Below are positions 8,157-27,158 of a stretch of DNA of 64,000 nt, piece by piece. The DNA lies in contig OZ245003.1 of the NCBI GenBank assembly GCA_965223425.1, positions 1,504,001 through 1,568,000 of the forward strand. The letters run 5' to 3'. Made by a program: the position numbers and the translations under genes. Position 1 is the stretch's first letter, and every line of letters begins with the position of its first letter. Under the pieces are notes generated by a model. It had not been told where the DNA came from. It did not search any database and saw nothing but the letters and a program-made list of their open reading frames with translations. Source of the DNA: Nitrosopumilus sp. Its GTDB lineage: Archaea; Thermoproteota; Nitrososphaeria; Nitrososphaerales; Nitrosopumilaceae.

Positions 8157-10323
8157 ATGGGGTCAAGGCCGACAAACAGGGAACTTGAAGAGACCCTGCG
8201 TTCTGCCACAGACAGGATAGCAACACTCCAGTCAAAATTTAATGTACTGCTAGATAAAAACAAACAACAAGAAAGGGCCATCGAGTATTACCAGCGCATG
8301 TTATCATACTATCAAAATCCCAACACCCCGCCGTCTGCTGACTCGCTTGAATGGAAGAGGCAAAAGAGGGAGCGTGCACAGCAAAGAAAAGACGGGGAGG
8401 GCAACGACAACAATAGCGGCAAGCCCGGCGGCAGGACAGGACGCGCCGGAGTATCGCGGCATCACAGCCCGGAGAGAAGACAGCGGCACGACTTTGAGCG
8501 CAGGCAGTCAGGCAGAAGCATCACAAAAGTTCTTCCAAGATGCAGGTGCGGCAAGGCCATGGTTTTGGGCAACCCCCGCGTACGGGACATCATAGAGATG
8601 GAGGTCACCGCACACGAGACCCGCCACCGCATAGAGACTGCTGTCTGCGCGTCATGCGGCCATACAGAGGAGGCGCCAAACGGCGACCTGCCAAGACTCG
8701 GATCGTACGGCAAGAACGCGGTGGGGTTCGTCTCTGAGCTGCGCGCCGCCCGCGTCCCGCTCAAGATCATACCGCGCATCATACACTCTGTTGCCGGAGT
8801 CAGCATGTCTGCTTCCACTGCAAACAGCATCATGGCACGCACCGCAGACGCGCTGGAAGGCCAGGCATCTGAGATAGCAAAGAACGTGGCCAAATCAGAA
8901 AGCGCCGGGTTTGATGAGACCATGCATCGCGACTGCGGCATCAAAAAGCAGACAAACGTGGCCCAGTCAGGAAACAACATCTCAATACAGATCAGCTCAA
9001 GCAGGGCCACCCTGATGCTTGATTCGATGAACTATGACGGCATAGCGGTAACTGTAGTATGCACATAAAAAAACTGAATCATTTTGACAATTATTTTTGG
9101 CCAAAAGATCCAAGACCGGCCATACCGCACACACTGCATGTACAAACAAAAAAAGAGACAGGTTGCAAGGGGGGCAAAATTTCTGCCAAACACCAGCGTT
9201 GCAGACCTCAAAAGGGCATACAAAAAAGAGACCGATCCCAGAAGGCGCGACAGGCTGCTTGCGTACATGCAGCGCAAGGACGGCGTGCCGCTATACAGGA
9301 TTGGAAGGATGCTGGGAAGGCCCAAATCCACCATATCTGCATGGCTCAACCGCGCACAGGACGAGGGAATGCGCGCAAGATTCGAGCGCAGCGGCAGGGG
9401 ACGAAAGCACCTGATAGGCGGGCCGCAGGCAAGACAGCTTGCAGCAGACCTGGATGCGGGGCCAGAATCATGCGGCTTTGAGAGCAGCCTGTGGGATTCC
9501 AACCTCGCAAGGCTGCACATCAAGCGAAAGTTCGGCGTGCAGTACAGCAAGACAGGCGCGCTGCAACTGATCAAGGAGATGGGCTTTTCGTGGAGCAAGG
9601 CGCGTCCAAAAAACCCAAGATCAGCCTCAAAAAGAAAGCAAAAAGAGTTTCAGGAGCGGGCAAAAAAACTCGTTGCAGAAAAGTCGGCGCAGGGATACAC
9701 CGTACTGGCCGGCGATGCATCCTCGATTCAAAAGGCATCAAACAGGCCCGGCTACGGGTGGAGAAGGCGCGGCAAGCGCGCCACATCCCCCTCTGTTTTG
9801 TCACGCGAAAGAAGATACATTTGGAGTCCTGTCAGCAAGCGCGTTTTACTTTATGTTTTATGAAAAGCCAGACAGCGACAGCTTTTGCAGCTTTTTGGAA
9901 CGGGTTCACAAAAGATTCGGCAGGGTGCTGCTGTTTGTAGACAATGCGTCATATCACAAATCCAAAAAGGCAAGGGAGTTTCTGGAAAGATACAACGGCG
10001 AGACAGTTCTGGAATGCCTGCTGCCGTACACGCCGGAGCTTAATCCCATTGAGATGCAGTGGAGGGTGATAAAACGGGTACTGTCTGCAAAGGTGTTTGG
10101 CACGCTAGATGAGATGGAGCAGTCAGTACGCAAGCTGTTTGCCAGAAAGGAGATCCTGCCTGTGAAAATGTTCAATTATTTAATATGCTAACTACGGAAG
10201 ATAAGCGGGCAGACCAAGGGCGGCAGCAAGTCCATGAAGCGCCTGGGAGATTTTGTAAGCTGCGTCCTGACGTGGCAGAATCACGGCAAGAGCGTGGCGC
10301 AAGAGGTTGCCAGACTGATATAA
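8157..10323 (+). pseudogene. IS66 transposase interrupted at 9055-10194, with 404 bp missing
   Basis: Matches copy 2 up to 9054, then resumes at 10195 (CGGAAG..., equivalent to 27011). Confidence 0.9.
9055..10194 (+). mobile_element. IS630-family element, copy 1 (frameshifted transposase)
   Basis: Ends TAGTATGCACAT / ATATGCTAACTA; 1140 bp versus 1142 bp for copy 2; a 2-bp deletion near 9820 splits the ORF (9084-9863 and 9673-10191). Confidence 0.9.
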
Positions 10324-10518
10324 GGGGCAGGTGAATTCATACGAACCAACAGACATGTAGACCCGTATGAGTCGTGTGGACAGGAAAAATGAATCCATGA
10401 CTTTGACGAGGATATGAGGACTCTACCAGTGTAACCGAGAGAAAAATATGAATCAAATTAACCCATAAATTTCAGATTTTGATATTGTTTTAAATCACAA
10501 CATTTCCTAGATTAACAT

Positions 10519-11442
10519 ATGTCAAATTTGCCCAGAAGTCAGATCAAAAAGGGTATTTCAGTATTAATTGAGACCAAGGAGAACCAAGGAACCGGAAAAC
10601 TCACAAGCGGTATAGTTGATGAGATTTTAACCTCTAGTGACTTCCATCCACACGGGATAAAGGTTCGATTGCAGGACGGGCAGGTCGGACGCGTCAAAAG
10701 CATTAGAGATGCTCAAAGAAATACACCTAAATCCATTCCAACTAAACCGGTTCACGCAAGAACTAAATCAAAAGAAGAGCTGTCAGAGATTGCTAAAAAA
10801 GCAGTGGCCTCTCGCAGGAGGAATCATCCTGAATGGGGACAAAAAGGAGTGGTCAAAAATATCAAAGTGATGAAAGGAACAACTGCTCCTCAATTCACAG
10901 ATCTGGACAAAAAAGAGATACCGAAGGTTGAAGACAAATACAATGAATTCAAAGAGTTTTACCAGTACGATGAAAAACTATCCAAATCATCATCCAAGGA
11001 AAATAAGCAGGTCTCCGATGGCATAAAGCGTTCCGTACAAGAGAGATTTGCCACGGCGGTGTGCTCCTTTGGAAACGATCCTAGGGGAGGATTCGTATAC
11101 TTGGGAATCAAATCAGATGGCACGATAGCAGGACTGGACAGAGATAAGAAATTAGGAGGGTTTCCAAACTATGACGATTCGTTTGCAAACAATATCAGAG
11201 ACAGGCTTGAGAATATGTTGGATGACAAAGTGTTCATCGCAAGCAAATTGCAGATAAAATTCAGAAGCATCAATAGCAATACCATCTGTCTTATCCAGAT
11301 ACTACCTTCAAACCAGCCACTCTATGTCCATTCCTCTAAACAAAAGACATTCTATGTGAGAGGTTCCACTCCAAGGGCGGAGAAACTAGACGGAAAGGAT
11401 CAATTCAGGTACATAAAGGAAAGATTTCCCAACTATGGATGA
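10519..11442 (+). CDS. YwbE(DUF2196)-Schlafen/AlbA_2 fusion protein
   Basis: N-terminal HPHGIKVRLQDGQVGRV (YwbE); C-terminal EFKE...VCSFGN..GGFVYLGIKSDG...FYVR (AlbA_2). Confidence 0.75.
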   Translation: MSNLPRSQIKKGISVLIETKENQGTGKLTSGIVDEILTSSDFHPHGIKVRLQDGQVGRVKSIRDAQRNTPKSIPTKPVHARTKSKEELSEIAKKAVASRRRNHPEWGQKGVVKNIKVMKGTTAPQFTDLDKKEIPKVEDKYNEFKEFYQYDEKLSKSSSKENKQVSDGIKRSVQERFATAVCSFGNDPRGGFVYLGIKSDGTIAGLDRDKKLGGFPNYDDSFANNIRDRLENMLDDKVFIASKLQIKFRSINSNTICLIQILPSNQPLYVHSSKQKTFYVRGSTPRAEKLDGKDQFRYIKERFPNYG

Positions 11443-11445
11443 GTC

Positions 11446-12408
11446 ATGGCAGAACTTTACCACAGCCCGTTATTTGATCACATTAAAAATTATCTAGGGC
11501 GAAGCAGTTCGGATGAAACCATATTTCTTTTTGTTCCATATGTGAAGACAAAGGTGTTAGAGAGATTATTGGAAGGAATACAAAACAAGATAGTACTAGT
11601 CACAACATGGGAACCAAAGGATATCCAGTTTGGATCTTCGGAGCTTGCCTTGTATCTGTTCTGTCAAGAGCGAGACATTGCGTTGTATGTCAGCGAAAAC
11701 CTACACCTTAAGGTATACTCGATAGGATTGAACAATGCAATACTTACTACCGGGAATATATCTCACAGAGGACTGTTACCTGATGGCAACTACGAGGCCG
11801 GAATCATACTTGAGAATCTAACAAACAAGGACAGGTTGTTTTTTGAAAAGATACGAAAGAAGGCAAGATTAGTAGATGATACCATGTATGAGGAGCTCAA
11901 AAAATGGAGTGAAAAAAACAAAGTGGATTTGCCAGAACAGATCACACTCAAAGACGTCATCTCTGCACCAAAAAAGGATGACTTTTCTGTGGCCTCATTG
12001 CCAATGACTCGCAGTGTAGATGATCTGGTTTTAGGATACAAAAAAATCACATCTAATCAAGCACCATCCGATGATCCTGAAACGGTTGCATGCATATTTC
12101 ATGACTTGGCAAACTATGGCATATCATCTGGGCTTTCAGAATCAGAGTTTTTGCAAGGGCTGTCTTTGAAATTCTTTGCACATCCATTCATTCAAAAAAT
12201 TGATGAGTTTATAGCACCAGAGGCATACTTTGGAAGAATAAAGGAATGGGTTCAAGACAATTGTACTGACGTTCCGGTGCCAAGCAGACGTGAGCTGACA
12301 GGAAATGTTCAGGTGTTGTTTGAATGGTTTGAAGTTTTAGGAAATGGCAAGTATGGGATAGATGTTCCAGGTGCCAAATCCCAGCGTATTCGTAAAATTT
12401 TTCCTTAA
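11446..12408 (+). CDS. PLD-like (HxK) nuclease-domain protein
   Basis: FVPYVK, LHLKVY...TTGNIS..GL...NYE pattern of PLD/Nuc-like domains; starts 3 bp after the upstream gene. Confidence 0.7.
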   Translation: MAELYHSPLFDHIKNYLGRSSSDETIFLFVPYVKTKVLERLLEGIQNKIVLVTTWEPKDIQFGSSELALYLFCQERDIALYVSENLHLKVYSIGLNNAILTTGNISHRGLLPDGNYEAGIILENLTNKDRLFFEKIRKKARLVDDTMYEELKKWSEKNKVDLPEQITLKDVISAPKKDDFSVASLPMTRSVDDLVLGYKKITSNQAPSDDPETVACIFHDLANYGISSGLSESEFLQGLSLKFFAHPFIQKIDEFIAPEAYFGRIKEWVQDNCTDVPVPSRRELTGNVQVLFEWFEVLGNGKYGIDVPGAKSQRIRKIFP

Positions 12409-13583
12409 AATATAGATATTCAAGAATATGATCTCAGATATTCTCTTTCGTAGAATTTTACTTATGCATCGATGATATAATCTAAATTTATTGTAGTGAC
12501 ACACAAAAGTTCTTCCATGTATCGAATTTTGCAAAACCATGATTACAGATTTCTCCGACCTGAATATTTTATAAGTGGCACAAGCAAGATCATATAAACC
12601 TGAATGAATTTTTGCGTGTCACTATAGTTTAAAAAAATAACCATAGGATGGTGAATGCTTCAACACATTAAATTACCTTCAAATTTTGATATAATCTGTG
12701 AAATTAGAAGATCTGCTTGTACGATTGGACATGCCATTATTAACTAAATTTCTAAGTAAATCAGTAATCGAAGTGTTAAATGTTCTTGATTCTGAAACAA
12801 TACGATTAAATCAACTCACTAAGTTGATACTTGATTCTATACCGGCATATACAATTTTGAATGAATCTGTAACACGCAATATTATAATTTATACTATGCA
12901 TGACGATGAAGCTGAAGAGTTTGCATCTTTTATAGGTATAAAAAAATGGGATAATATACATTACAAACTAATCAACACAAAATTCACAGAAGGAATACTA
13001 AAAAAATCATTAGAATTTTTTGGTAAAGAATATGAAGAAGATGAAAGTATTAATCGTGAAGATTATCATGAAATTGAGCCTGAAAGATTTCTTTTTCCAC
13101 ATCAAATATCTACCGTTAAACAAACTCAAGATCTCTTAAAACAATCTCCACATAAAGCGCTTTTACACATGCCCACTGGATCTGGAAAAACAATATCGGC
13201 CATGAGAATTGTCACTGCTCATTTATTAGAAAATCCATCAGCTTTGGTGATCTGGCTTGCGCATAATGAAGAACTATGTGAACAGGCCATGAATGAATTT
13301 CAGATCACATGGAAAAATGCAGGGGATAGAAAAATTGATGCTTATCGTTTTTTTGGATCAAGTAAATTAGATCCTCTATCTATTGAGAATGGATTTATGT
13401 CTGCAGGATTATTGAAAATGCTAGGATCTGCAAAAAAAAATAATACATTTTTAGCCAAACTTGCTCGTAAAACAAGTTTTGTTGTTATTGATGAAGCACA
13501 TCAGGCAATAGCAGAAAAATTTTCAATTATCGTAGAAGAATTAGCAGAAAATAAAAACACAAAACTGTTGGGACTTAGTGCTA

Positions 13584-14725
13584 TAGTTAGCACATTAAAT
13601 AATTGAACATTTTCACAGGCAGGATCTCCTTTCTGGCAAACAGCTTGCGTACTGACTGCTCCATCTCATCTAGCGTGCCAAACACCTTTGCAGACAGTAC
13701 CCGTTTTATCACCCTCCACTGCATCTCAATGGGATTAAGCTCCGGCGTGTACGGCAGCAGGTACTCCAGAACTATCTCGCCGTTGTATCTTTCCAGAAAC
13801 TCCCTTACCTTTTTGGATTTGTGATATGACGCATTGTCTACAAACAGCAGCACCCTGCCGAATCTTTTGTGAACCCGTTCCAAAAAGTTGCAAAAGCTGT
13901 CGCTGTTTGACTTTTCATAAAACATAAAGTAAAATGCGTTTGCCGCCAAAGCTCCAAAGATGTATCTTCTTTCGCGTGACAAAACAGAGGGGGATGTGGC
14001 GCGCTTGCCGCGCCTTCTCCACCCGTAGCCGGGCCTGTTTGATGCCTTTTGAATCGAGGATGCATCGCCGGCCAGTACGGTGTATCCCTGCGCCGACTTT
14101 TCTGCAACGAGTTTTTTTGCCCGCTCCTGAAACTCTTTTTGCTTTCTTTTTGAGGCTGATCTTGGGTTTTTTGGACGCGCCTTGCTCCACGAAAAGCCCA
14201 TCTCCCTGACCAGCTGCAGCGCGCCTGTCTTGCTGTACTGCACGCCGAACTTTTTCTTGATGTGCAGCCTTACCAGGTTGGAATCCCACAGGCTGCTCTC
14301 AAAGCCGCATGATTCTGGCCCCGCATCCAGGTCTGCTGCAAGCTGTCTTGCCTGCGGCCCGCCTATCAGGTGCTTTCGTCCCCTGCCGCTGCGCTCGAAC
14401 CTTGCGCGTATTCCCTCGTCCTGTGCGCGGTTGAGCCATGCAGATATGGTGGACTTGGGCCTTCCCAGCATCCTTCCGATCCTGTCTAGCGGCACGCCGT
14501 CCTTGCGCTGCATGTACGCAAGCAGCCTGTCGCGCCTTCTGGGATCGGTCTCTTTTTTGTATGCCCTTTTGAGGTCTGCAACGCTGGTGTTTGGCAGAAA
14601 TTTTGCCCCCCTTGCAACCTGTCTCTTTTTTTGTTTGTACATGCAGTGTGTGCGGTATGGCCGGTCTTGGATCTTTTGGCCAAAAATAATTGTCAAAATG
14701 GTTCAGGTTTTTTATGTGCATACTA
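13584..14725 (-). mobile_element. IS630-family element, copy 2 (intact), with TA target duplication
   Basis: Imperfect TIRs; TA at 13582-13583 and 14726-14727. Confidence 0.92.
13587..14696 (-). CDS. IS630 transposase
   Basis: HTH region plus DDE triad (GDAS, VDNASYH, PELNPIE). Confidence 0.92.
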   Translation of the reverse strand: MTIIFGQKIQDRPYRTHCMYKQKKRQVARGAKFLPNTSVADLKRAYKKETDPRRRDRLLAYMQRKDGVPLDRIGRMLGRPKSTISAWLNRAQDEGIRARFERSGRGRKHLIGGPQARQLAADLDAGPESCGFESSLWDSNLVRLHIKKKFGVQYSKTGALQLVREMGFSWSKARPKNPRSASKRKQKEFQERAKKLVAEKSAQGYTVLAGDASSIQKASNRPGYGWRRRGKRATSPSVLSRERRYIFGALAANAFYFMFYEKSNSDSFCNFLERVHKRFGRVLLFVDNASYHKSKKVREFLERYNGEIVLEYLLPYTPELNPIEMQWRVIKRVLSAKVFGTLDEMEQSVRKLFARKEILPVKMFNYLMC

Positions 14726-15426
14726 TACTCCAGGACGCACGTCGGATTATATGGACTCAGCTAATAGACAACTTGCACAATTCTTTGCAAATCGTAAAAT
14801 AATGTTGGATACTGGAAAGAAGAATCCTGTTCTATTTCTTATTGAAAAAAAATATCTAGCAAATCCAATTTTTACTCCAATACGATATTTAAGCAATAAT
14901 TTATCAGATAAAGATATTCTCAAAATAGAAAAAGATCTAGATATACCATATTCAATATTGGAAAAATTATCTCATGATACAAAACGAAATTTATCAATTA
15001 TACAAGAAATAATGCGTCTTTCTAAAAAACACAAAAAAATAATTGTATTTGCATCTAGTGTTAAACATGCACGAAATATTTCATTAATATTATCTGCAAA
15101 AAAATATAATTCATATTATGTTGTTGGTAAGACACCTTCTAAAATACGAGCAAAAATACTAGATGATTACAAAAATATTGATAAAAGTATGATCTTGTGT
15201 AACTATGGCATATTGACGATGGGTTTTGATGCACCAAAAACATCTGCTGTAGTTATTGCTAGACCAACAAAATCTTATGTGCTTTATGCCCAGATGGTTG
15301 GGAGAGGAATACGAGGACCTGCAGCAGGAGGAAATGAGACATGTGAAATAGCAACAGTTATGGATGAAAGTATCAATGAATTTATTAATGTAACAAATAT
15401 CTTCACTCGATGGGAGAGAGCATGGA

Positions 15427-17226
15427 ATGAATGATAATAATGAGGACTACAATCTATTTTCAGGTGATAAATTTGTTGAATCATTACGTAGTGGTGGCTA
15501 CAAAAATACTTCATATGCAATAGCCGAATTAATTGATAATGGAATTGATGCAGAAGCAAAACATATTGAGATTTTATGTCAAGATGTAATCAATCATGTT
15601 ACAAATCGATATACATTAGATCAAATAGGAATTTTTGATGATGGTCATGGAATGAATCAAGAAGAACTTCGTCGTTCTCTTCTTTTTGGTAGTGGGAATC
15701 GAGGTATGAATTCTAAAGAAATAGGCAAATATGGCATGGGTCTACCAAATTCATCACTATCGCAATGCAAAAAAGTAGAAGTATATTCTTGGCAAAATTC
15801 TTCAGAGCCACTTTATAGTTACATTGATCTAGATAAAGTTAAGAAAGGAGATCGTCAAATCCCAAAACCAGAAATAAAAAAAATACCAAACATATGGAAA
15901 AAATCTTCAGAACATTTTTCAAAAAAATCTGGTACTCTTGTGGTATGGAGTCAATTAGATCGATGTTCGTGGACTACATCAAAAAAAATAATGGAGCATT
16001 CTGAATATTTAATTGGAAGATTATATCGAAAATTTATCACAAAAGATCTTGTAATCAATATGAAATCATTTGGAGTGAATAAAGAGGACATAGTCAACGA
16101 AAAATCAAGATCTATGCTCCCAAATGATCCATTATATCTTACAACACCTTCATCTACTCCCGGAGAATGGAGCAGAAAACCTATGTTCAAACCCGATGAA
16201 ACATTTGAAGAAGAACACCCAATAAATTATGATGGGGCGCAACATGTTGTAAAGGTACGATACTCACTCGTTAAAGATGAAGTACGTGATCCAAAAAATA
16301 ATACTGGTGATCCTGGCAGTACACCTCATGGTAAACATGCTCAGAAAAATGTTGGCGTATCTATCATACGGGCAGATAGAGAAATCGAGATGAATACTGA
16401 TTTAGTGATATCTTATGATCCAACAGAACGATGGTGGGGAGTTGAAATCAATTTACCTACTTCATTAGATTTGGCAGTAGGTTTAACAAACAACAAACAA
16501 CACACTATAATTCTTTCTGACATATTGTATTTGCTAAAGCGATTTATTGATGATGATGAAGGCCGTTCGCAAGTAGATGATGAGTTATTCGAACAGAATC
16601 CTACTCGCAGTGAATTACTTATAATGTGTCAAAAAATCGAAAGTCACATACGTTCAATGCGACGTAGGCTAAAGGCATCTAGGAGCGGTACACGTGGAGG
16701 AAGTTCTAAACCAAAGCTAGAGGATAAGATCAAAGGTGGATTTGATAGTGGACAGAATGTTGGCGAACATGGTCAAACCGAAGAAGACAGAAAGAAATTA
16801 AATGAAGCACAACGTGAATCGATGCTTGCAGACGGTTTAGTAAATGATGGAATCGAAGAAGAACAAGCTAGAAAAATTGCTGCTAGGTGGATTGCTGAAG
16901 ATAAGAAAGTAACATTCGATATAGCCGAACTTGATGGAAGTCAATTTTTCAGTGTTGAAAATATGGGAGGAATTTTGAGAATCAAAATAAATTCCAATCA
17001 TCGCGCATACAAAAATTTACTTTCAGTAACAGAATCTAATGAGCATGAAAATCTTGATTGTAAAAAACGTTTAGAATTAGCTAGAGATGGATTATGGTTA
17101 CTGCTTACATCTTGGGCACGATTTGAAGATTTAACAACAAACAAGGATCTGCGTGAAAAAATACAAGACATTAGAATTGATTGGGGAAAACAAATAAATC
17201 GATTTCTAGAACAAAACGAAGTTTAA
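15427..17226 (+). CDS. MORC-like GHKL ATPase
   Basis: ELIDNGID, DDGHGM, GKYGMG, SGTLVVW motifs; start overlaps the helicase stop (ATGAATGA). Confidence 0.85.
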   Translation: MNDNNEDYNLFSGDKFVESLRSGGYKNTSYAIAELIDNGIDAEAKHIEILCQDVINHVTNRYTLDQIGIFDDGHGMNQEELRRSLLFGSGNRGMNSKEIGKYGMGLPNSSLSQCKKVEVYSWQNSSEPLYSYIDLDKVKKGDRQIPKPEIKKIPNIWKKSSEHFSKKSGTLVVWSQLDRCSWTTSKKIMEHSEYLIGRLYRKFITKDLVINMKSFGVNKEDIVNEKSRSMLPNDPLYLTTPSSTPGEWSRKPMFKPDETFEEEHPINYDGAQHVVKVRYSLVKDEVRDPKNNTGDPGSTPHGKHAQKNVGVSIIRADREIEMNTDLVISYDPTERWWGVEINLPTSLDLAVGLTNNKQHTIILSDILYLLKRFIDDDEGRSQVDDELFEQNPTRSELLIMCQKIESHIRSMRRRLKASRSGTRGGSSKPKLEDKIKGGFDSGQNVGEHGQTEEDRKKLNEAQRESMLADGLVNDGIEEEQARKIAARWIAEDKKVTFDIAELDGSQFFSVENMGGILRIKINSNHRAYKNLLSVTESNEHENLDCKKRLELARDGLWLLLTSWARFEDLTTNKDLREKIQDIRIDWGKQINRFLEQNEV

Positions 17227-17244
17227 TGTACAATTATTCATTTT

Positions 17245-18084
17245 CTATAAATGACAAACAGTACAAGGCGTTGATTCATCCTCATCATCCAATGCATCTG
17301 CAAGTACATCAACTAATGGCAGATTTTTTCTCTTCGCTTTAGCTTTTTTGAGTTTATCCTCATGATTTTTCATTATCTCATCTCGTCTCTCTAGCAGTTC
17401 AGTCAATGTTTCGCCCTGTGACCATGTATACTGCCTTCCTTTCATGCCACTTGATTTAAAATCTGCATCACCTGCAACTCCGGCATCTTTGAGTATCTTT
17501 TGTTCAATTGCAACTGCACGCTTGAACAAGTCTGGGTGATTGTCTGCAAGACCAACCCATTCTGCTTTACGTTGAAAGAAACAAAAGTAACATCCGGAAC
17601 GTGTCCTCCACTTGTAATATTCTGGAAGATTAATTCCTGTATCTTCCAGAATCTTTACAACTCCAGTATGATCAATGTCATCGTCAATGAATGGGAATAC
17701 GGTCTTTATGTTGGGTTTTGTAGAGACATAACCTGTTCTACTCTTCTCATCTGCACGAATAGCCACATAGGATATTACCTCATCATCTCCAATCCAGTCC
17801 TCAAGTGGTTTTATCTTTAACATGCTAGTGCACCATCTCATCTGTGGTGATGGTAGTGTACCTCGAAACACCTCAAAGTAATGATCAAAGCTTCTAGTAG
17901 AGTTTAGCTTGATTATCGGTTTGCCAAGAACGACTTCAAGTTTTGCAAGATACGCATAGGTCTCTGGAAGCTCGGCCCCAGTATCACAAAAGAAATACTC
18001 CATGTCTGGAATCCTATCTCGCATGTAGACGGCAAGTGCGCTAGAATCTTTGCCGCCAGATATACCGCAAACATTGCGTGCCAT
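17245..18084 (-). CDS. sspD: PAPS reductase-family protein, SspD/DndC-like
   Basis: SGGKDS PP-loop, RWCT, RSGCYFCFFQ, terminal CxxCHL; likely start MARNVCG at 18084. Confidence 0.8.
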   Translation of the reverse strand: MARNVCGISGGKDSSALAVYMRDRIPDMEYFFCDTGAELPETYAYLAKLEVVLGKPIIKLNSTRSFDHYFEVFRGTLPSPQMRWCTSMLKIKPLEDWIGDDEVISYVAIRADEKSRTGYVSTKPNIKTVFPFIDDDIDHTGVVKILEDTGINLPEYYKWRTRSGCYFCFFQRKAEWVGLADNHPDLFKRAVAIEQKILKDAGVAGDADFKSSGMKGRQYTWSQGETLTELLERRDEIMKNHEDKLKKAKAKRKNLPLVDVLADALDDEDESTPCTVCHL

Positions 18085-18151
18085 GATTATAACATCAGAT
18101 CTAAGCATATAACTATTCATATTAGAAAGCACCAGAACTTAAAATACTTGA

Positions 18152-18334
18152 ATGATCTTAAAACCAAATAAACTATCAAATATAATTCCACATCACATAT
18201 TTGAAGAACATAAAAAAGTGGCACCATGTATTTCTTTGATCATAAAGGATGATAGTCAGATAGCTGACATTATGGTAAGAAAAAAAGAAGGTAGTCAGAA
18301 ACATTATTCTCTGGCTATAGAAACAAATGACTAG
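18152..18334 (+). CDS. Small hypothetical protein
   Basis: 60-aa ORF, no recognisable motif. Confidence 0.3.
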   Translation: MILKPNKLSNIIPHHIFEEHKKVAPCISLIIKDDSQIADIMVRKKEGSQKHYSLAIETND

Positions 18335-18353
18335 CAAAGTAAAACCGAATCTG

Positions 18354-18521
18354 TTACTTTATCTTTACAGCCAGTTTGTCAAATTCTTTCTTTGAGACAG
18401 TAAGACAAAACAATACCTTGTCAGGCTTTTTTGCATTTTTTATCATTGGATAGAATTTGATTACATACATGCCGTCTTTTTTTGTGACTTCATATGGCCT
18501 CTCGCCGATCTTTTCTCGCAT
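18354..18521 (-). CDS. Small basic hypothetical protein (55 aa, not in ORF track)
   Basis: MREKIGERPYEVTKKDGMYVIKFYP...KLAVKIK; ATG to TAA. Confidence 0.5.
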   Translation of the reverse strand: MREKIGERPYEVTKKDGMYVIKFYPMIKNAKKPDKVLFCLTVSKKEFDKLAVKIK

Positions 18522-18624
18522 TTGATAGTTTAAGCAAAATATGATCTTATAGGTTTATCTGCCATTATACAAGATCTTAAAATTTACGCACGAATCTTAT
18601 TATATTTGTATGACGTATTATGAT

Positions 18625-18686
18625 TAGCCGTAATTGAATCCTCTGAACTAACAGTGTTGGTGTCAGGGGCCGTGCAGTTACGGCCA
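18625..18686 (+). ncRNA. Candidate structured ncRNA at the 3' end of the DUF3800-like gene
   Basis: Nested stems TAGCCGTAATTG/CAGTTACGGCCA, CCTCTGA/TCAGGGG and ACTAAC/GTTGGT; mismatches are mostly G-U on the + strand; TTATAT about 25 nt upstream. Confidence 0.5.
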
Positions 18687-18691
18687 TTCTA

Positions 18692-19270
18692 TCATTTGAA
18701 ATCATGTCTTAGCTTTGTTTCAATTGCATCTGTTACATCCATTGAAATTACTCCATCAGGTTCACGCCCTCGATTGTTCCCCCACGCAACAAGATCAGAT
18801 AATATGTATGCATAATCCTTATCACCATGATGCAGACCATTATTTTGTACAAAACCTCTGCAATCGGTATCACACTCAAAAACAATATCCGATAAAGTAT
18901 AATTATGCTTAATAGTAAATTCTAAGATTTTTTCACGTACGTGTTGTAATAACAGATAGTTATACACAGAAAGAATCTTTATGTGAGGAATATGTGGCTG
19001 TCTTTTATGTGCTAATTTTTTGGTATCTTTAATTATTCTGTCTCGGTCAATTCTTACACAAAACGCTATATTCTCTTTACCATTGAATTGAAGTTGAGAA
19101 GTAAGATCACTTCGAACTTTTGTTAGTTTTATTTGATTGACTGTAAATTGTTTTATGTCCAATTGCTTAATCATAGAATTAATACTATCCTTTGTACCAA
19201 TCACAATTCCCATATATTTATAATTTCCAACATCCGGATGTCCTGATACATCGATTCCTGCAACAAGCAT
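18692..19270 (-). CDS. RNase H-fold, DUF3800-like protein
   Basis: AGIDVSG at the N-terminus, central FECD, C-terminal LSDLVAW; starts 5 bp after the sspC stop. Confidence 0.5.
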   Translation of the reverse strand: MLVAGIDVSGHPDVGNYKYMGIVIGTKDSINSMIKQLDIKQFTVNQIKLTKVRSDLTSQLQFNGKENIAFCVRIDRDRIIKDTKKLAHKRQPHIPHIKILSVYNYLLLQHVREKILEFTIKHNYTLSDIVFECDTDCRGFVQNNGLHHGDKDYAYILSDLVAWGNNRGREPDGVISMDVTDAIETKLRHDFK

Positions 19271-19275
19271 GTTTT

Positions 19276-22200
19276 TTACTTTGTAGTTTTAGAACTCAAT
19301 ATTGCAATCAATGCACTCATATCTTTATCTTTGAATCCTTTCTTTTTGATCATTTTAATTATATCTTGAACAATTATTTGCATCTCTTCTTTTTGTTTAG
19401 GTCTTAATGATACGACGTTGTGATGCTCACGGCCATCCGCATGTGTCACTGTCACCTGATATGATGGTTTTACAAAATTATCAGATATATCAGAAAAGTG
19501 TATGGATGCAAGTCTCTTGAATTTTCTAGACATTTCAATTAGATTGTTCTTAAACATTTTACGGTCATCATCCTTCCAAGACATCATTGGTACATCAGTT
19601 AGACTTAGGGCAACATAGTTTATCCAGTCCTCGTCTTTTTCTAACACATCTGATGACAGTGCTGTAAGAAATACTTTCATTTTTTGATCAGATACGCTTT
19701 GTAGCATAACTGATGCAGTCTTTGATAACTTGTTCCTCTCATCAATTCCGGTGCTAACCAAAAGTAGTTCTTTGATATCCTCAATGGTACGAAGGAATTT
19801 GTTTTGGAGTCTTGTTTTTGATTTGACAAGGGTTTTTGAGAATTTTTCAATATCAGATACAGATGCATGAGCCAGATCAAACTTTAATGCCTTTGGAAGT
19901 GATTCAAACAACAAGGTATCCGGTTCTATTGCATTTTGGACAGCATCCCTGACTGCAAGTGAATCTTTGTCTAAATCCTTTGTTTGTTTCACATATGGTG
20001 AAAGTGCAGAAACAATTCTGACAAGATGTGATACGACATCCAAGACACTGCCTTTGGAATTTATTTCAAAGTCAGATATTACTGTCTTTAGCAGTCTCTT
20101 TTTGGATGGTGTACTCTTGAAATATTTTACCTCAAAATGATCCGGATTCTTTATCATTCTCTCTGCAATCTCCGTCATCATATATGGAACGTATGTGCCG
20201 TGTTCGTATAACGCAATGTTGTGTTTGTGTATCAAGAGAATCGCAACCATGAATATTGCTAAAACCCCATCTTTGACTCCAAATGGGGGAAGTCTACATA
20301 CACGATATATTGCAGATATCGGGACTCGTTTGTTGGATTTTGTAATTTCATCTATCATTGCACTCCATGCTGGCTTGATTTCAGGATTTTTTGGTTCCTG
20401 CAATTCCCAATCATTACCGATGGTACCTACATGAATTCCATACTGAATGAATATTGCATCATAGACTGCTCTGTCAGGTCCGTAACCTTCTAGACCAAAA
20501 TTGGGTTTGTCTGTATGGTTTATCATATACTCTAATAATTTTCTTTTTGCAGCAGATCCTTGTGATGATAAGACTGTTCTGTTTATCATCTCGTTGTGTA
20601 TCGGAGGCGTCTTATCGTATACATCATCACAGATTTTAGAGACAATTGCACTAGGAGTACCTGATTGTTTTGCGGGCCTGTCTTTAAGATAAGACCATTC
20701 TGCCTTACTGCCATATGTAGTGCCAAACTCTCTATCTAGAATTATCTCCGCATCTGCTAATCGCTCTTCTAGCTCTCTGCGTGCTACCCAGTCAGATATA
20801 ACATCCTCACTGTTATTCAAAATGTCACGAATTGCCATTACCTCGATTGCAGCATGTTTTAGATCCGACGTATCCCCAGCAGTTACTGTAACGACTGGCT
20901 TGTCGCACTTGAACTGTACAGAATTTCCAGTATTGTGTATTATTATTCCATCATAGCTATCATCCAGATTTATCTGCGGTGTGATTGTAAAGCTTCTCTC
21001 AAATAGCCTCATGGTGCCAGTCTTTATACTGTGTTTTGCTGCCACAACTGGTTCTAAACTTATTACCTCTTGTAGCATGTCTGCTAGATGCGATTTTGCA
21101 TATCTCTTGCGATACATGATAAGCTTTGCTGCAATGTCAATGTCCGTGCCATGCCATATCCTGTATTCATCTGCATATTTTCTGTATGTGATGATTGATT
21201 TTTTCTCCAATTTATGGAGTATCTGTGCTGCAGAATATCCGATTGCGTAGTTTAGGATCTTGCGTGATGCTCTAAGATAGCCTGATCTTCCAATCAGATT
21301 TAGTATTCCAATTGTCTTAAGCGTCTTTATCTCCAAGCTGCTCAATCCGTGGGAATCTCGAATTATGGTTTCAATCTCCATCAGTCTAGTTATGTTCTGA
21401 GAGCTAGAATGAATCATACTAGTACCAGAGATAAAATGATCATACAATACATCGATTCCCATTGTGGGCGGAGATTGCGTATTCCACGAATTATTATCAA
21501 TAAATGTAGCAACCGTATGTTTGCTTGCATCTGAGATAAATGACAAGAGCGTCCTCTCATGCTGTCCGTACCTAGAGCAGAGCTCCGGCAGGACTTCAAG
21601 TGCAAGCGACCCTAATGGATAGCATGATGCAATTAGATTAGAATCAGAACTGCTATCGATGCCAAGATCCTGCATCTGCCGTGCTTCTTTTTTTGCCCAT
21701 TTTTTGACATCTCTACCGTATTCCTCCAAGTTTAGATGCATGGTATTTGATATCAGTAGTCTAGCCTGATCCGGCGAGTTTGCAAATGGAATATCCTCAA
21801 AGCGTCCCTGGATCTTTGCCCATTCCTTCTTTTGTGTAATTGATGCCCCCACCGCATATTCTTCAAAGGCCATGTGCTGTAGTGTGATGATGAATAACGG
21901 AATCTTTCTGCCCGGACCCGACATCTCTGCAAGCGCTTGCAGTAAAAATAGATCACTTTGTTGTGTCTCATCTGTTGTAAAATATTCAATGTTTTTGCCA
22001 AATTCATCAATCATGATTACCATCGGGGCAGATTTACACATATCCACTATGATCTCTGTTATTATTTTTGTAGATGGGGTCTTGTTATTTTGTAAATCCT
22101 TTATCTTTTGATGCAAAATGTTTGCCTGAGAAAAGTCCTTCTTTGAATATCTTCCAAAATATTTCCTTGCACCTTCATCGAGCGCACGAAGTATGGTTGC

Positions 22201-22620
22201 AGTTATTGGTTCACGACCTGCAGTTATTGCACATCTAATCAGACCTTTGTTGTGGGTATTTGATTTTTCTCTTGCTTGTACAAAAATATCTGCAACCGTG
22301 TATGATTCTTTTTTTAATATGGAATATGTTGCTTTCCATTCGGTATCATTTTTGCTACAAAACAAACTGTTTAGAAATATTGCCATCGTTGATTTGCCAG
22401 AACCGTATGGTCCTGTAATGGATAACATCCTACCACTTTTAGCACCTCTAAGACCAGCTGAAAAACGCTCAATGATCTCTAACGTACTTGCACTAGGAAG
22501 ATAGTTCTTTAGTGTTGTAATGTCATCATTTTCTATATTTGTAGATACATATGACTTTGGTGGAATTGAGACAATACGAGATAATGGAATTGGTTTTCTG
22601 TTTTGTAAAGATGACTTCAA
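19276..22620 (-). CDS. sspC: Large P-loop ATPase, SspC/BrxC-like
   Basis: GPYGSGKST Walker A, MIDEFGK Walker B, YGQHERTL; ATGA overlap with the DUF4007 gene. Confidence 0.8.
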   Translation of the reverse strand: MKSSLQNRKPIPLSRIVSIPPKSYVSTNIENDDITTLKNYLPSASTLEIIERFSAGLRGAKSGRMLSITGPYGSGKSTMAIFLNSLFCSKNDTEWKATYSILKKESYTVADIFVQAREKSNTHNKGLIRCAITAGREPITATILRALDEGARKYFGRYSKKDFSQANILHQKIKDLQNNKTPSTKIITEIIVDMCKSAPMVIMIDEFGKNIEYFTTDETQQSDLFLLQALAEMSGPGRKIPLFIITLQHMAFEEYAVGASITQKKEWAKIQGRFEDIPFANSPDQARLLISNTMHLNLEEYGRDVKKWAKKEARQMQDLGIDSSSDSNLIASCYPLGSLALEVLPELCSRYGQHERTLLSFISDASKHTVATFIDNNSWNTQSPPTMGIDVLYDHFISGTSMIHSSSQNITRLMEIETIIRDSHGLSSLEIKTLKTIGILNLIGRSGYLRASRKILNYAIGYSAAQILHKLEKKSIITYRKYADEYRIWHGTDIDIAAKLIMYRKRYAKSHLADMLQEVISLEPVVAAKHSIKTGTMRLFERSFTITPQINLDDSYDGIIIHNTGNSVQFKCDKPVVTVTAGDTSDLKHAAIEVMAIRDILNNSEDVISDWVARRELEERLADAEIILDREFGTTYGSKAEWSYLKDRPAKQSGTPSAIVSKICDDVYDKTPPIHNEMINRTVLSSQGSAAKRKLLEYMINHTDKPNFGLEGYGPDRAVYDAIFIQYGIHVGTIGNDWELQEPKNPEIKPAWSAMIDEITKSNKRVPISAIYRVCRLPPFGVKDGVLAIFMVAILLIHKHNIALYEHGTYVPYMMTEIAERMIKNPDHFEVKYFKSTPSKKRLLKTVISDFEINSKGSVLDVVSHLVRIVSALSPYVKQTKDLDKDSLAVRDAVQNAIEPDTLLFESLPKALKFDLAHASVSDIEKFSKTLVKSKTRLQNKFLRTIEDIKELLLVSTGIDERNKLSKTASVMLQSVSDQKMKVFLTALSSDVLEKDEDWINYVALSLTDVPMMSWKDDDRKMFKNNLIEMSRKFKRLASIHFSDISDNFVKPSYQVTVTHADGREHHNVVSLRPKQKEEMQIIVQDIIKMIKKKGFKDKDMSALIAILSSKTTK

Positions 22621-23567
22621 TGTGTTAATGCCTCTACTTTTTGTTTTAATTTTCTTACAGGTTTTTTGTATATCAGGGAGAGTATTTCCATGGATGTATC
22701 TTGAGCCGAATCAAACATCAGGTGCTGCGTGCCGTTGACATTATCAATCTTTATCAAATTACAGTGATCAGATGCCTCTCTTAGCATCTCTGCAATATCG
22801 TTTTCGCCTATCTTGAAGATATTGCCAACGCTGCCGGGCTCTGTTGCCAGCCTGCTTACTGATACACTTTTTGATGTTATTTTGGCCTTGTCAATAAAGT
22901 CTAGGCACGCAAATGCGACCATTAGTGGTGAGAGCCCGTATTTTTTGCCAAATACAAACCGCATCATGTCCTTGGAGATCTGCTTTACCATGTGAAGCTG
23001 TCTGAACGGACAATCTAGATAATCCTCCATTGACATCTTGGCCTGTTTGGTGGTGTATGTGTGTATGAATACATCAATATCTTTTTTGATGGATTTTGGG
23101 CTAGGTGTCTTCCATTCAGATATGTTTGTAATGCGTGATATGACAGACTCTGTAACGTCATCAATCTTGATGTTTGTTGCTGCAAACTCGTTCATAACTA
23201 TCCACCATACTGGAATGCTACATGGTGGGGCAAAAAGCAGCCAGTGCAAGAGCCACAGTGTATCAGGCTTTTCAAGATATGGATCAAGACCTTTGTTGCT
23301 AAATATGGCATGTCCCATATCTGTTGGTATCATCGTCATGTTTTTGCCAGTACCACTTGCAGTAATTATCTTGTTTGCCATTGCCCAGAATCTTATTGCA
23401 CGAACCATATTCTTGCCAACCCCTAGCTTGATTGTAGCATTATCATGCAAAAAGATGCGACCATCTACGTTTATCTGATTGTATGCCTTTTTGAGCCAAC
23501 CATATCTGAGATGAAATGTTTCATGATGTGAAAATATTGGCGTTGTTACGGCATCAGTAATTAACAT
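22617..23567 (-). CDS. sspB: DUF4007 protein, SspB-like
   Basis: FSHHETFHLRYGWLKK, LGVGKNMVRAIRFW, DPYLE...WLLHW. Confidence 0.85.
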   Translation of the reverse strand: MLITDAVTTPIFSHHETFHLRYGWLKKAYNQINVDGRIFLHDNATIKLGVGKNMVRAIRFWAMANKIITASGTGKNMTMIPTDMGHAIFSNKGLDPYLEKPDTLWLLHWLLFAPPCSIPVWWIVMNEFAATNIKIDDVTESVISRITNISEWKTPSPKSIKKDIDVFIHTYTTKQAKMSMEDYLDCPFRQLHMVKQISKDMMRFVFGKKYGLSPLMVAFACLDFIDKAKITSKSVSVSRLATEPGSVGNIFKIGENDIAEMLREASDHCNLIKIDNVNGTQHLMFDSAQDTSMEILSLIYKKPVRKLKQKVEALTH

Positions 23568-24733
23568 TATCTTGCACTCTCTTTAATTTCAGATTCTTTA
23601 CCTCTTACATACTGTACAGCTTTGGTAATTACATCTATCGCAATATTCATATCGTTTTGTGTTGTTTGACGGCCAATCGATATGCGAATGCATTCATTTG
23701 CCTCATCTGTATTCAATCCCATTGCAATCAACACATGCGATGGTTCCATTGTAGCAGACGAACAAGCACTTCCTGTTGAAATTTCTATTTTCGGCGCATT
23801 TGCAATTACAGCATCTGCAAGAGCGCCTTTTATTCTAATGTTTGATGTGTTTGGCAAACGATTTGCATTTTTGCCGTTGATTGTTACATCTGGAATATTT
23901 TTGGTAATATTTTCTTCAAAGTAATCTCTGAGATTTTGTTGCAGTACCGCATCATCTTCTTGTTTGTTTATTGCGATATCGCAGGCTTTACCAAATCCCA
24001 CTATTCCCGGAACGTTTAGTGTTCCACTGCGCATGTTGTTTTCTTGCCCGCCACCATAAAGAATTCCCCGCATCTGTTTTCGGGCATCTCTTGTGGCAAC
24101 AAGTGCACCGCATCCCTTTGGACCATAAATTTTATGGCTACTAAACGTCATAAAATCAATATCAAGTTCTCCCGCATCAAAAGGAATTTTTCCAATGGCT
24201 TGTGTGGCATCACAGTGAATTAGTGCATTATGCGCATGTACTTTTTGCACGATTTCTTTAATTGGATGAATTACACCAGTTTCACTGTTTGCTGCCATAA
24301 CTGATACAATATCTGTATGTCCGTTAAGCAATTCCTTGTCTAATTCATAAAGATCAAGTGTGCCATCACGGTTGACCGGAATCTTTTTGACTACTGCACC
24401 CTGTTCTGACATAAATCTGCACGGCTCTAAGACAGATTTGTGTTCTGTGGCCCCAATTATAGTGCATAATGGTTTTTTCTGATTGAGGGATAACCCATAA
24501 AAGACCATGTTGTTTGCCTCAGTAGCTCCGGATGTAAATATGACATCTGCTGGTTTCATGCCGACAATGTTTGAGACACGATAGCGTGCCTCTGCTACTA
24601 GCTCTGATGCAATTCGTCCTGTTTCATGATTCCCACTTGACGGGTTTCCAAAATTTTTATCAAATACAGGAGTCATTGATTCGATGACACGCCGATCTGT
24701 TGGGGTAGTGGCATTATAATCTAGATAAGGCAT
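23567..24733 (-). CDS. sspA: Cysteine desulfurase, SspA/DndA/IscS-like
   Basis: YLDYNATTP, SSHKIYGPKG (PLP Lys), STGSACSS (catalytic Cys); TAATG overlap with sspB. Confidence 0.9.
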   Translation of the reverse strand: MPYLDYNATTPTDRRVIESMTPVFDKNFGNPSSGNHETGRIASELVAEARYRVSNIVGMKPADVIFTSGATEANNMVFYGLSLNQKKPLCTIIGATEHKSVLEPCRFMSEQGAVVKKIPVNRDGTLDLYELDKELLNGHTDIVSVMAANSETGVIHPIKEIVQKVHAHNALIHCDATQAIGKIPFDAGELDIDFMTFSSHKIYGPKGCGALVATRDARKQMRGILYGGGQENNMRSGTLNVPGIVGFGKACDIAINKQEDDAVLQQNLRDYFEENITKNIPDVTINGKNANRLPNTSNIRIKGALADAVIANAPKIEISTGSACSSATMEPSHVLIAMGLNTDEANECIRISIGRQTTQNDMNIAIDVITKAVQYVRGKESEIKESAR

Positions 24734-25603: not shown

Positions 25604-25632
25604 TGATTAAAAAAGATATAGTAGCAATCATC

Positions 25633-27158
25633 GTATGAATTCACCTACCCTGCCTAATCAAAAAATTTGATCATCTGATCCATATATTGCCTGTTTGCTA
25701 CCATTTTCATGGGGTCAAGGCCGACAAACAGGGAACTTGAAGAGACCCTGCGTTCTGCTACAGACAGGATAGCAACACTCCAGTCAAAATTTAATGTACT
25801 GCTAGATAAAAACAAACAACAAGAAAGGGCCATCGAGTATTACCAGCGCATGTTATCATACTATCAAAATCCCAACACCCCGCCGTCTGCTGACTCGCTT
25901 GAATGGAAGAGGCAAAAGAGGGAGCGTGCACAGCAAAGAAAAGACGGGGAGGGCAACGACAACAACAACGGCAAGCCCGGCGGCAGGACAGGGCACGCCG
26001 GAGTATCGCGGCATCACAGCCCACAGAGAAGACAGCGGCACGACTTTGAGCGCAGACAATCAGGCAGAAGCACCAAAAGAATCCTTCCAAGATGCAGGTG
26101 CGGCAAGGCCATGGTTTTGGGCGACCCCCGCGTACGGGACATCATCGAGATGGAGGTCACCGCACACGAGACCCGCCACCGCATAGAGACTGCAGTCTGC
26201 ACGTCGTGCGGCCATACAGAGGAGGCGCCAAACGGCGACCTGCCAAGACTCGGATCGTACGGCAAGAAGATGGCAGGGTTTGTCTCTGAGCTGCGCGCCG
26301 CCCGCGTCCCGCTCAAGGTCATACCGCGCATCATACACTCTGTTGCCAGAGTCAGCATGTCTGCCTCCACTGCAAACAGCATCATGGCACGCACCGCAGA
26401 CGCGCTGGAAGGCCAGGCATCTGAGATAGCAAAGAACGTGGCCAAATCAGAAAGCGCCGGGTTTGATGAGACCATGCATCGCGACTGCGGCACCAAAAAG
26501 CAGACGAACGTGGCCCAGTCCGGGAAAAACATCTCGATACAGATCAGCCCAAGCAGGGCCACCCTGATGCTTGATTCGATGGACTATGACGGCATAGCGG
26601 TAACTGACGCATACAGGGGGTACGACAGGTTCAATGCAGAGGACAGACACCAGCTGTGCTGGTCGCACGACATACGCAAGGCAAAAACCCTGGCAGAAAA
26701 ATACGATCCCCTCTTGGATGACGGCAGGCGGAAAAAACGGCGGCAGTACCTCGAGGACCTGCGGTTTGTGTTCAAGGAGGCAAAACACGTCGCACGGCTG
26801 GGGGCGCACTCGCGGAGGCAGCGGCACGTCATGGAGGACACCCTGGCAGACGTTCTTGACCGGTACTGCGGCACGGATGATGCAGACCTGCACAAGCTTG
26901 TCATGATGATGTACCGGCACCTTCCGCACCTGTTTACGTTTGTCCAGTACGCCGGGGTGGAGCCGACTAACAACGCATCAGAGAGGGCGCTGCGCTATAT
27001 GGTGGTGTTCCGGAAGATAAGCGGGCAGACCAAGGGCGGCAGCAAGTCCATGAAGCGCCTAGGAGATTTTGTAAGCTGCGTCCTGACGTGGCAGAATCAC
27101 GGCAAGAGCGTGGCGCAAGAGGTTGCCAGACTGATATAAGGGGCAGGTGAACTCATAC
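25633..27158 (+). mobile_element. IS66-family element, copy 2 (intact, single ORF, 1526 bp)
   Basis: TIRs at both ends; 8-bp TSD CAATCATC at 25625-25632 and 27159-27166. Confidence 0.95.
25709..27139 (+). CDS. IS66 transposase
   Basis: Coiled coil, zinc finger, FDET, TDAY, QLCWSH, TNNASERALR. Confidence 0.93.
   Translation: MGSRPTNRELEETLRSATDRIATLQSKFNVLLDKNKQQERAIEYYQRMLSYYQNPNTPPSADSLEWKRQKRERAQQRKDGEGNDNNNGKPGGRTGHAGVSRHHSPQRRQRHDFERRQSGRSTKRILPRCRCGKAMVLGDPRVRDIIEMEVTAHETRHRIETAVCTSCGHTEEAPNGDLPRLGSYGKKMAGFVSELRAARVPLKVIPRIIHSVARVSMSASTANSIMARTADALEGQASEIAKNVAKSESAGFDETMHRDCGTKKQTNVAQSGKNISIQISPSRATLMLDSMDYDGIAVTDAYRGYDRFNAEDRHQLCWSHDIRKAKTLAEKYDPLLDDGRRKKRRQYLEDLRFVFKEAKHVARLGAHSRRQRHVMEDTLADVLDRYCGTDDADLHKLVMMMYRHLPHLFTFVQYAGVEPTNNASERALRYMVVFRKISGQTKGGSKSMKRLGDFVSCVLTWQNHGKSVAQEVARLI

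Follow-up and report, generated by a model that had tools for sequence, protein, structure and literature searches.

Gene content of the locus

A stretch of 64,000 nucleotides (nt) from Nitrosopumilus sp. (assembly GCA_965223425.1, contig OZ245003.1, positions 1,504,001 to 1,568,000 of the forward strand), hereafter called the window, was analysed. At positions 10519-24733 it carries an SspABCD-type locus for DNA phosphorothioation (PT), placed tail to tail with a group of plus-strand genes that may form its restriction arm (Table 1). The original prediction, made from the DNA letters, had described a minus-strand run of sspA, sspB and sspC, with sspD, converging across 18 bp on genes for a YwbE-Schlafen protein, a PLD-like protein, a DEAH helicase and a GHKL ATPase. 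All of these genes were found where it had put them. The four ssp genes were recognized by PADLOC with E values from 1e-90 to 2e-295. In the open reading frame (ORF) listing sspA and sspB overlap by 1 nt and sspB and sspC by 4 nt, and the convergent stop codons of the GHKL gene (17226) and sspD (17245) are 18 bp apart. The PADLOC model for BrxC scored below the SspC model on SspC (E 7e-100). The host had been taken for an ammonia-oxidising archaeon, and this was borne out: the genome encodes an archaeal AmoA, the window encodes CdvA, and the closest loci are from Nitrosopumilus and other Nitrosopumilaceae.

Table 1. Features of the PT locus, its borders and the related island in the same genome (aa, amino acids; HTH, helix-turn-helix; IS, insertion sequence; SF2, superfamily 2)
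Feature	Position	Strand	Evidence	Remark
Left border, IS66-family element	8075-10348	+	repeat comparison, blastn against right copy, weak DDE_Tnp_IS66 match	
YwbE (DUF2196) and SLFN_AlbA_2 fusion, 307 aa	10519-11442	+	DUF2196 E 1.8e-25; SLFN_AlbA_2 E 1.2e-10; TIGR03833 YwbE E 8e-26	
Predicted PLD (HKD) nuclease with C-terminal tandem HTH, 320 aa	11446-12408	+	alignment, profile, AlphaFold model	
DEAH SF2 helicase, 5' part	12698-13583	+	ResIII E 4e-20; DEAD E 2.5e-13	
IS630-family insertion, 1142 bp	13584-14725	-	DDE_3 E 8e-25 and HTH domains	interrupts helicase
Helicase, 3' part	14726-15434	+	Helicase_C E 2.6e-14	in frame from 14730
MORC-like (paraMORC) GHKL ATPase, 599 aa	15427-17226	+	HATPase_c_3 E 9e-24	full length
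SspD, PAPS-reductase-type sulfurtransferase	17245-18132	-	PADLOC SspD E 7e-110 (positions 1-276 of 277); Pfam PAPS_reduct	
Conserved 55-aa ORF between 192-aa ORF and sspD	18354-18521	-		equivalent ORF in paralogous island
Conserved 192-aa ORF directly 3' of sspC	18692-19270	-		only Nitrosopumilaceae so far
SspC, ORC/Cdc6-BrxC-type ATPase, 1114 aa	19276-22620	-	PADLOC SspC E 2e-295 (positions 3-1104 of 1104)	
SspB (DUF4007)	22617-23567	-	Pfam DUF4007 E 3e-83 (positions 1-288 of 288); PADLOC SspB E 1e-90	
SspA, cysteine desulfurase	23567-24733	-	PADLOC SspA E 1e-133 (full model); Aminotran_5 E 9e-80	
Right border, IS66-family element	25627-27172	+	transposase 25709-27139, DDE_Tnp_IS66 E 1e-27	intact
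Paralogous Ssp island, locus L082	G000:C1:486001-506000			about 1 Mb from window; intact

The 320-aa protein of the arm gave no Pfam match. In its AlphaFold model (pLDDT 94.2) a PLD domain (residues 1-155) is followed by a tandem HTH (residues about 175-320). In an alignment of 39 homologues the HKD-motif residues H87, K89 and N104 do not vary; the archaeal members have Gly where HxK(x)4D canonically has Asp. The family profile matches PLD chains in the PDB. Structural comparison of the PLD domain (Foldseek, VIA) gave SauUSI with a Z of 17.1 (rmsd 2.1 over 144 residues), Nuc with 14.9, BfiI with 14.6, NucT with 14.1 and the NgoAVII R-protein with 11.3. Alignment, profile and model together make a strong case for a PLD nuclease. 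The C-terminal 145 residues matched N.BspD6I (Z 7.8), FokI (Z 6.6), BrxA (Z 6.6), SspB (Z 6.5) and many winged-helix regulators.

The helicase had been thought to be in need of repair. It is indeed a split gene, but more than a repair is involved, as the coding sequence is interrupted by a 1142-bp element of the IS630 family. The 5' part encodes a helical domain at the N-terminus together with motifs I (GSGKT) and II (DEAH), and the 3' part, which overlaps the start of the GHKL gene by 8 nt, holds the rest of motif III (PGRT), RecA2 and motif VI (QMVGRGIRG). Removal of the element and of one TA rejoins GLSAT to PGRT in an in-frame motif III and restores a helicase of about 530 codons, the orthologues having a median length of 536 aa. 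The 3' part is 60-68% identical to intact Nitrosopumilaceae orthologues. The helicase family profile found RadD as its best match (6jde, E 7e-46, Z 23.2), ahead of XPB, type I HsdR and SauUSI. In a model of the intact orthologue from locus L010 (pLDDT 87.4), residues 9-112 form an entirely helical N-terminal domain specific to this helicase family, which a disordered linker separates from the two RecA domains.

The ATP-binding motifs of the GHKL protein are intact, with E34, N38, D71, G73, G75 and G100-G105 invariant. Its profile matched MORC2 best in the PDB (E 3e-9), together with MORC3/4, and then MutL.

Conservation of the cassette and linkage to ssp genes

The helicase, GHKL and nuclease genes, in the following called the cassette, were traced through other genomes. 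Among 8000 candidates scored, 2390 GHKL homologues were obtained at E<=1e-5; the family has a length of about 600 aa. A scan with one genome per species gave 558 stretches encoding a GHKL relative. The best 80 of these 558 stretches, extended by as much as 10 kb to either side, formed the locus set, and 45 of them had full 10-kb flanks. The loci were analysed with the window proteins as tblastn queries and by all-against-all clustering of 1111 ORFs.

A helicase gene was present in 77 of the 80 loci, and in 75 fewer than 400 nt separate its end from the GHKL gene downstream. Genes of the ssp type were found in 64-65 loci; where the flanks were complete, they lay within 10 kb in 40 of 45 cases. 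The usual order was sspB-sspC-sspD-helicase-GHKL-nuclease, often followed by sspA. The 40 Ssp-linked loci with full flanks carried a PLD gene in 33 cases and an HNH_4 gene in nine, one or the other in 38, and all 40 carried PLD, HNH_4 or SspE. In the nine loci, mostly cyanobacterial, the HNH_4 gene sits between sspD and the helicase gene. PLD or HNH_4 was present in 67 of all 80 loci, and a cyanobacterial locus (L039, 9959-12616) encodes a natural GHKL-PLD fusion of 885 aa. Ten of the 80 loci have SspE as a neighbour of the cassette; nine of these belong to the 65 Ssp-positive loci. The loci span Archaea, Cyanobacteria, Bacteroidota, Actinomycetota, Chloroflexota and Pseudomonadota, and most of those examined are bacterial. 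Across the whole set, HNH_4 between sspD and the helicase gene was seen in 15 of 80 loci (for example L053, 6519-7892), often instead of PLD.

Because the 80 loci are the closest relatives of the window locus, unbiased genome samples were also taken. The archaeal sample consisted of 301 genomes of the archaeon's order, with a GHKL match threshold of E<=1e-20. GHKL was found in 12 genomes and DUF4007 in 11, with both in 10. Both of the genomes with GHKL and no DUF4007 gave weak partial matches, and the only genome with DUF4007 and no GHKL is 87% complete. A strong GHKL match (E<1e-80), with the host genome excluded, was accompanied by DUF4007 in seven of seven genomes. In two other archaeal genomes a more distant GHKL subfamily occurs near DUF4007. 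The cyanobacterial sample held 301 genomes of the phylum of a Nostoc record. DUF4007 was detected in 34 of these, strongly in 26. Full-length GHKL was detected in nine, the seed genome among them. All nine also had DUF4007, which in eight genomes lies on the GHKL contig at a distance of 6-18 kb. Judged by GHKL, the cassette would account for nine of the 26 cyanobacterial genomes with strong DUF4007, and for 10 of the 11 Ssp-positive genomes of the archaeon's order. The predicted co-occurrence of GHKL and helicase homologues with ssp genes was seen in 40 of 45 loci, 10 of 12 genomes of the archaeal order and 9 of 9 cyanobacterial genomes.

The original prediction had proposed an alternative, PT-linked effector arm in which a Schlafen protein might take part. 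The arm is unnamed, linked to ssp and usually accompanied by PLD. The Schlafen gene, on the other hand, belongs to it in Nitrosopumilaceae only, and the cassette as such is not confined to archaea.

A second island in the same genome

The genome holds a paralogous island, L082 (Table 1). It comprises sspA-sspB-sspC, ORFs of 187 aa and 55 aa, a DUF262/DUF1524 gene (SspE/GmrSD-like) and sspD, together with genes for GHKL, an intact 539-aa helicase, YwbE-Schlafen, PLD and HNH. Identity to the window proteins is 91% for SspD, 76% for PLD, 75% for SspC, 74% for SspA, 66% for SspB and 56% for the Schlafen protein, but only 33% for the helicase and 27% for GHKL. By sequence comparison, the helicase-GHKL pair appears to have been exchanged as a unit while remaining attached to ssp, and such an exchange argues for a functional module. 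A working system is probably supplied by the L082 island. The two divergent islands, one of them with an IS-broken helicase, offer a natural comparison for the role of the restriction arm.

Comparison with named systems

None of the models for SspE, DndFGH, PbeC/PbeD and PglZ matched the arm, in agreement with the expectation that it differs from the named PT partners. The SspE system shares SspA, SspB, SspC and SspD with the window, and ten of the 80 loci, like L082, have a DUF262/DUF1524 gene next to the cassette. In contrast, the window holds no DUF262/DUF1524 homologue, as had been predicted: a tblastn search of the window with the L082 DUF262/DUF1524 protein found nothing, and no Pfam or PADLOC match to SspE was seen among the arm ORFs. 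The arm helicase, GHKL and PLD proteins are not homologous to SspE. PglZ, also predicted to be missing, was not among the scanned ORFs (window 76-50067), and neither was a GmrSD Pfam match.

SspFGH, known from Vibrio anguillarum FF-93 and E. coli, resembles the arm in being a three-gene cassette beside sspBCD with a proposed role in damaging DNA that lacks PT. There is also a superficial likeness in size, SspF having 605 aa against about 600 for GHKL and SspG 510 aa against about 530 for the helicase. The domains differ: none from Pfam is recognised in SspF or SspG, and SspH (1794 aa) is of the FtsK/SpoIIIE kind. In blastp against the arm proteins and all 1111 ORFs from the 80 loci, and in tblastn against the window, SspF, SspG and SspH of E. 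coli C10, located through Table S2 of PMC8092258, gave no significant match. The possibility that the arm is SspFGH in disguise was rejected on this lack of similarity and on the different domains, despite the similar gene sizes.

In the published survey of sspBCD clusters, 83.9% of 2678 have no known partner (PMC8092258). Its Table S2 lists three of the present loci, L060 (Erythrobacter luteus KA37), L053 (Xenococcus PCC 7305) and L063 (Nostoc NIES-4103), without SspFGH. L060 is a complete sspBCD-helicase-GHKL-PLD locus, to which the survey assigns neither SspE nor SspFGH (PMC8092258). Such cassette loci are counted there as orphan sspBCD.

The haloarchaeal PbeABCD system, a partner of DndCDEA and one of the CxC ABC ATPase-DndE systems, is likewise PT-linked and archaeal and combines an SF2 helicase with an HKD nuclease. 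In PbeA the HKD nuclease and the SF2 helicase are joined in one protein, PbeC is a CxC ABC ATPase, and PbeD is a relative of DndE (PMC10853773, PMC6459918). The window locus differs in that nuclease and helicase are separate, GHKL is present, PbeB, PbeC and PbeD are missing, and Ssp takes the place of Dnd. The two helicase pieces matched PbeA models in PADLOC at E 1e-12 and 1e-6, which is weak and concerns the generic helicase core; apart from the helicase, no match to the PADLOC Pbe, DndD or DndE models was found in the ORFs of 10519-24733. DndF, DndG and DndH had no PADLOC match in the arm. With regard to BREX type 4, neither PglZ nor BrxL was found among the scanned ORFs, and SspC and SspD match BrxC and BrxP only as weaker relatives. 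For Mza, the MzaB model reached 61 bits against an NCBIfam cut-off of 850, with only the N-terminal 160 positions matching.

ATP-dependent restriction enzymes of the SauUSI and NgoAVII/CglI types also combine a PLD nuclease and a DNA-binding domain with an SF2 motor; in the NgoAVII/CglI type the R-protein carries the PLD and the N-protein resembles a helicase. The window helicase profile also matches SauUSI (E 3e-22). These types differ from the cassette in their B3 or SRA-like domain and their tie to methylation, whereas here a tandem HTH, an additional GHKL protein and PT are found.

A further precedent is the prediction by Iyer et al. 2008 that operons of MORC/paraMORC with a Rad25-like helicase and an HKD nuclease or restriction endonuclease are restriction systems (PMC2292703). 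In these operons GHKL likewise lies by a Rad25/XPB-like helicase and an HKD nuclease, and they are laterally mobile and found in islands. The mechanistic idea of looping or clamping together with unwinding and cleavage is shared with the proposal for the cassette. Features of these operons present in the cassette are the intact GHKL motifs, the adjacent RadD/XPB-like helicase (75 of 80 loci) and the nuclease (67 of 80 loci). The 2008 operons differ in being tied to DNA methylases, and the accessible text does not mention phosphorothioation (PMC2292703). The theme of MORC in restriction has thus been known since 2008. To our knowledge, the Ssp system was not known at the time of that work. What is new here is the non-identity with known systems together with an ssp-linked trio of helicase, GHKL and nuclease.

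Proposed mechanism and alternative explanations

We consider it probable, with considerable room for doubt, that the locus is a PT-based restriction-modification island in which an unnamed ATP-dependent cassette of the MORC type carries out restriction and PT serves as the mark of self. SspABCD, here with two small lineage-specific ORFs, would place the PT mark on host DNA. The RadD/XPB-like SF2 helicase would be the ATP-driven translocase, and the MORC-like GHKL ATPase could clamp or loop DNA under the control of ATP and thereby couple helicase and nuclease. The PLD-HTH protein would read the site or its PT state and cut, probably as a dimer; Nuc and BfiI, which have a single HKD motif, are the basis for suggesting a dimer. 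In Nitrosopumilaceae the YwbE-Schlafen protein, presumably co-transcribed with the nuclease, might be an auxiliary RNase. The cassette would attack DNA without the host PT pattern and spare PT-marked DNA.

Both modes of action have precedents. SspFGH and DndFGH attack DNA without PT, and SspE is activated by PT. For the cassette, an attack on unmarked DNA is somewhat more likely than PT activation of the SspE kind. This is mildly favoured by the fate of the nuclease in those loci that have no ssp genes. Five of the 45 loci with full flanks (L006, L032, L033, L038 and L039) are of this kind, and no DUF4007 was found in their genomes. Three of the five have only the helicase and GHKL genes, with no nuclease gene, among housekeeping neighbours, while L039 retains the PLD fusion and L006 the HNH_4 gene. 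Pairs standing among housekeeping genes may be remnants after loss of ssp.

Several points weigh against a PT-based restriction island. PT, cleavage and defence are inferred from sequence and models. The helicase of the window copy is broken, so this copy cannot work as proposed. The structural matches of the HTH region of the PLD protein are middling (Z 6.5-7.8) and give a fold-level lead only; homology between this C-terminal domain and SspB was considered and rejected, the profile-profile probability being 0.1%. The evidence for linkage rests on the best 80 of 558 loci, and related genomes in the samples are not independent, although the association of GHKL with ssp repeats across phyla. 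The five Ssp-less loci show that the helicase-GHKL pair can persist without Ssp. Finally, the cassette may already have been described: full-text searches found no paper that presents it as an Ssp partner, but subscription papers and closed supplements were outside their reach; in the portions accessible, PMC10853773, PMC12839542, PMC12914056, PMC12904381, PMC8569181, PMC13712998 and PMC12707154 do not describe it as such.

The same cassette could instead sense PT, as SspE and PbeABCD do, being licensed by host PT, harmless without it and acting on incoming DNA. We regard this as unlikely but deserving of attention. The persistence of the helicase-GHKL pair in five genomes without detected DUF4007, with the PLD fusion kept in L039 and HNH_4 in L006, would fit a cassette that is harmless when PT is missing, and the presence of the PT-sensing effector SspE beside the cassette in nine of 65 Ssp-positive loci shows that the two can coexist. 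PbeABCD depends on PT (PMC6459918), and among the PADLOC models PbeA comes closest to the helicase; this match is weak, however (E 1e-12), and no PT-binding domain was identified in the cassette. Moreover, three of the five Ssp-less loci have lost the nuclease, as would be expected if that protein were dangerous without PT. A more distant explanation, which we find rather improbable, is that the cassette is an independent ATP-dependent MORC/paraMORC defence system, a mere island neighbour of ssp and uncoupled from PT. Defence genes generally cluster in islands, and this island is bordered by ISs. The five genomes with the pair and no DUF4007 point the same way, as do the operons of 2008, which in the accessible text pair with methylases and not with PT. 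Chance neighbourhood is difficult to reconcile with 40 of 45 full-flank loci from many phyla having ssp within 10 kb, usually in a fixed order, or with full-length GHKL being accompanied by DUF4007 in seven of seven and nine of nine genomes, against backgrounds of 11 of 301 and 34 of 301. In addition, no methyltransferase was found beside the Ssp-less copies among the 31 ORFs scanned of 75 neighbouring ones.

It is also conceivable, but in our view very improbable, that helicase and GHKL serve the modification side, by loading or moving SspBCD or by setting PT density, and not restriction. Extra factors of this kind can be imagined since PT marks only a fraction of its sites (PMC12914056), and three Ssp-less loci do keep helicase and GHKL without a nuclease. 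Against this, SspBCD with IscS suffices for PT in E. coli according to PMC8092258, a nuclease gene is present in 38 of the 40 Ssp-linked full-flank loci with its catalytic His, Lys and Asn invariant, and a GHKL-PLD fusion exists.

For the wider question of whether the cassette is a major unrecognised restriction partner of SspBCD, explaining many orphan sspBCD clusters, with the HTH reading PT and the MORC clamp coupling this to translocation, we consider the chances to be evenly balanced. Orphan sspBCD left open whether such clusters are defence systems, and the cassette offers a testable partner for a sizeable share of them. If the proposal is correct, no other MORC relative from prokaryotes would have been linked to a mark on the DNA backbone before the GHKL protein, which would provide a tractable system for studying how MORC ATPases respond to epigenetic marks. 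Ammonia-oxidising archaea, in which antiviral systems are little studied, would then join the organisms with PT-based immunity.

Insertion sequences and state of the window copy

The IS630-family element contains an intact 369-aa DDE_3 transposase gene (13587-14696, minus strand) and terminal inverted repeats, and has TA on both flanks. The insertion point lies between helicase motifs II and III, so that the restriction arm is most likely inactive in the window copy; modification may continue. The other island genes look intact, and the insertion is probably recent. No uninterrupted helicase allele was seen in contigs from four of the six public runs that hold the stretch: none crosses the element, the run contigs entering it by 29-30 nt with a bridging threshold of 31 nt, and contigs drop rare variants, so that absence of an intact allele is not implied. 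In the 2.64-Mb genome 27 full-length copies of the element (92-100% identity) and 42 matches in all were counted, which looks like a recent IS expansion. The same-order relatives listed have genomes of 1.4-2.2 Mb.

The island is bracketed by two IS66-family copies in direct orientation, and the genes flanking it are housekeeping genes. The left copy is interrupted by a decayed, inverted IS630 copy (9055-10194); about 404 bp of it are gone, and no matching target duplication flanks it. An 8-bp target duplication, CAATCATC, stands on both sides of the right copy. A composite transposon formed by the two copies was considered and is unsupported, because the right copy has a target duplication of its own; the outer flanks were also unmatched. 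Both kinds of IS have a G+C content of about 50%, compared to about 37% in the DNA around them.

Lineage-specific genes and other features

The YwbE-Schlafen gene ends 3 nt before the PLD gene. Homologues were found only in the Nitrosopumilaceae loci L010, L044 and L073 and in the paralogous island. Judged from these matches, it is an accessory gene specific to this archaeal lineage.

The original prediction had not listed the 192-aa and 55-aa ORFs between sspC and sspD. For the 192-aa ORF no Pfam, PADLOC or NCBIfam match was obtained. Homologues are present in L012 (71%), L017, L044 and L082 (41%), and in the Atlas it fell into archaeal hypothetical clusters only, apart from a weak lead to DUF3800. 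The 55-aa ORF, which had no Pfam match, has a counterpart at the same place in L082 (11826-11993), where the surrounding DNA is 71% identical to the window; by tblastn it was also found in L010 (89%) and L044 (60%). Both ORFs are conserved only in Nitrosopumilaceae loci and the paralogous island, and may encode lineage-specific Ssp accessory proteins. An SspE-like remnant was considered for the 560-bp gap between sspD and the 192-aa ORF and was rejected, as tblastn gave no match and the gap holds the conserved 55-aa ORF.

Outside the island, at 47344-48849 on the minus strand of the window, a 501-aa ORF with strong collagen triple-helix repeats (Pfam Collagen E 1e-56) was observed in this archaeal genome.

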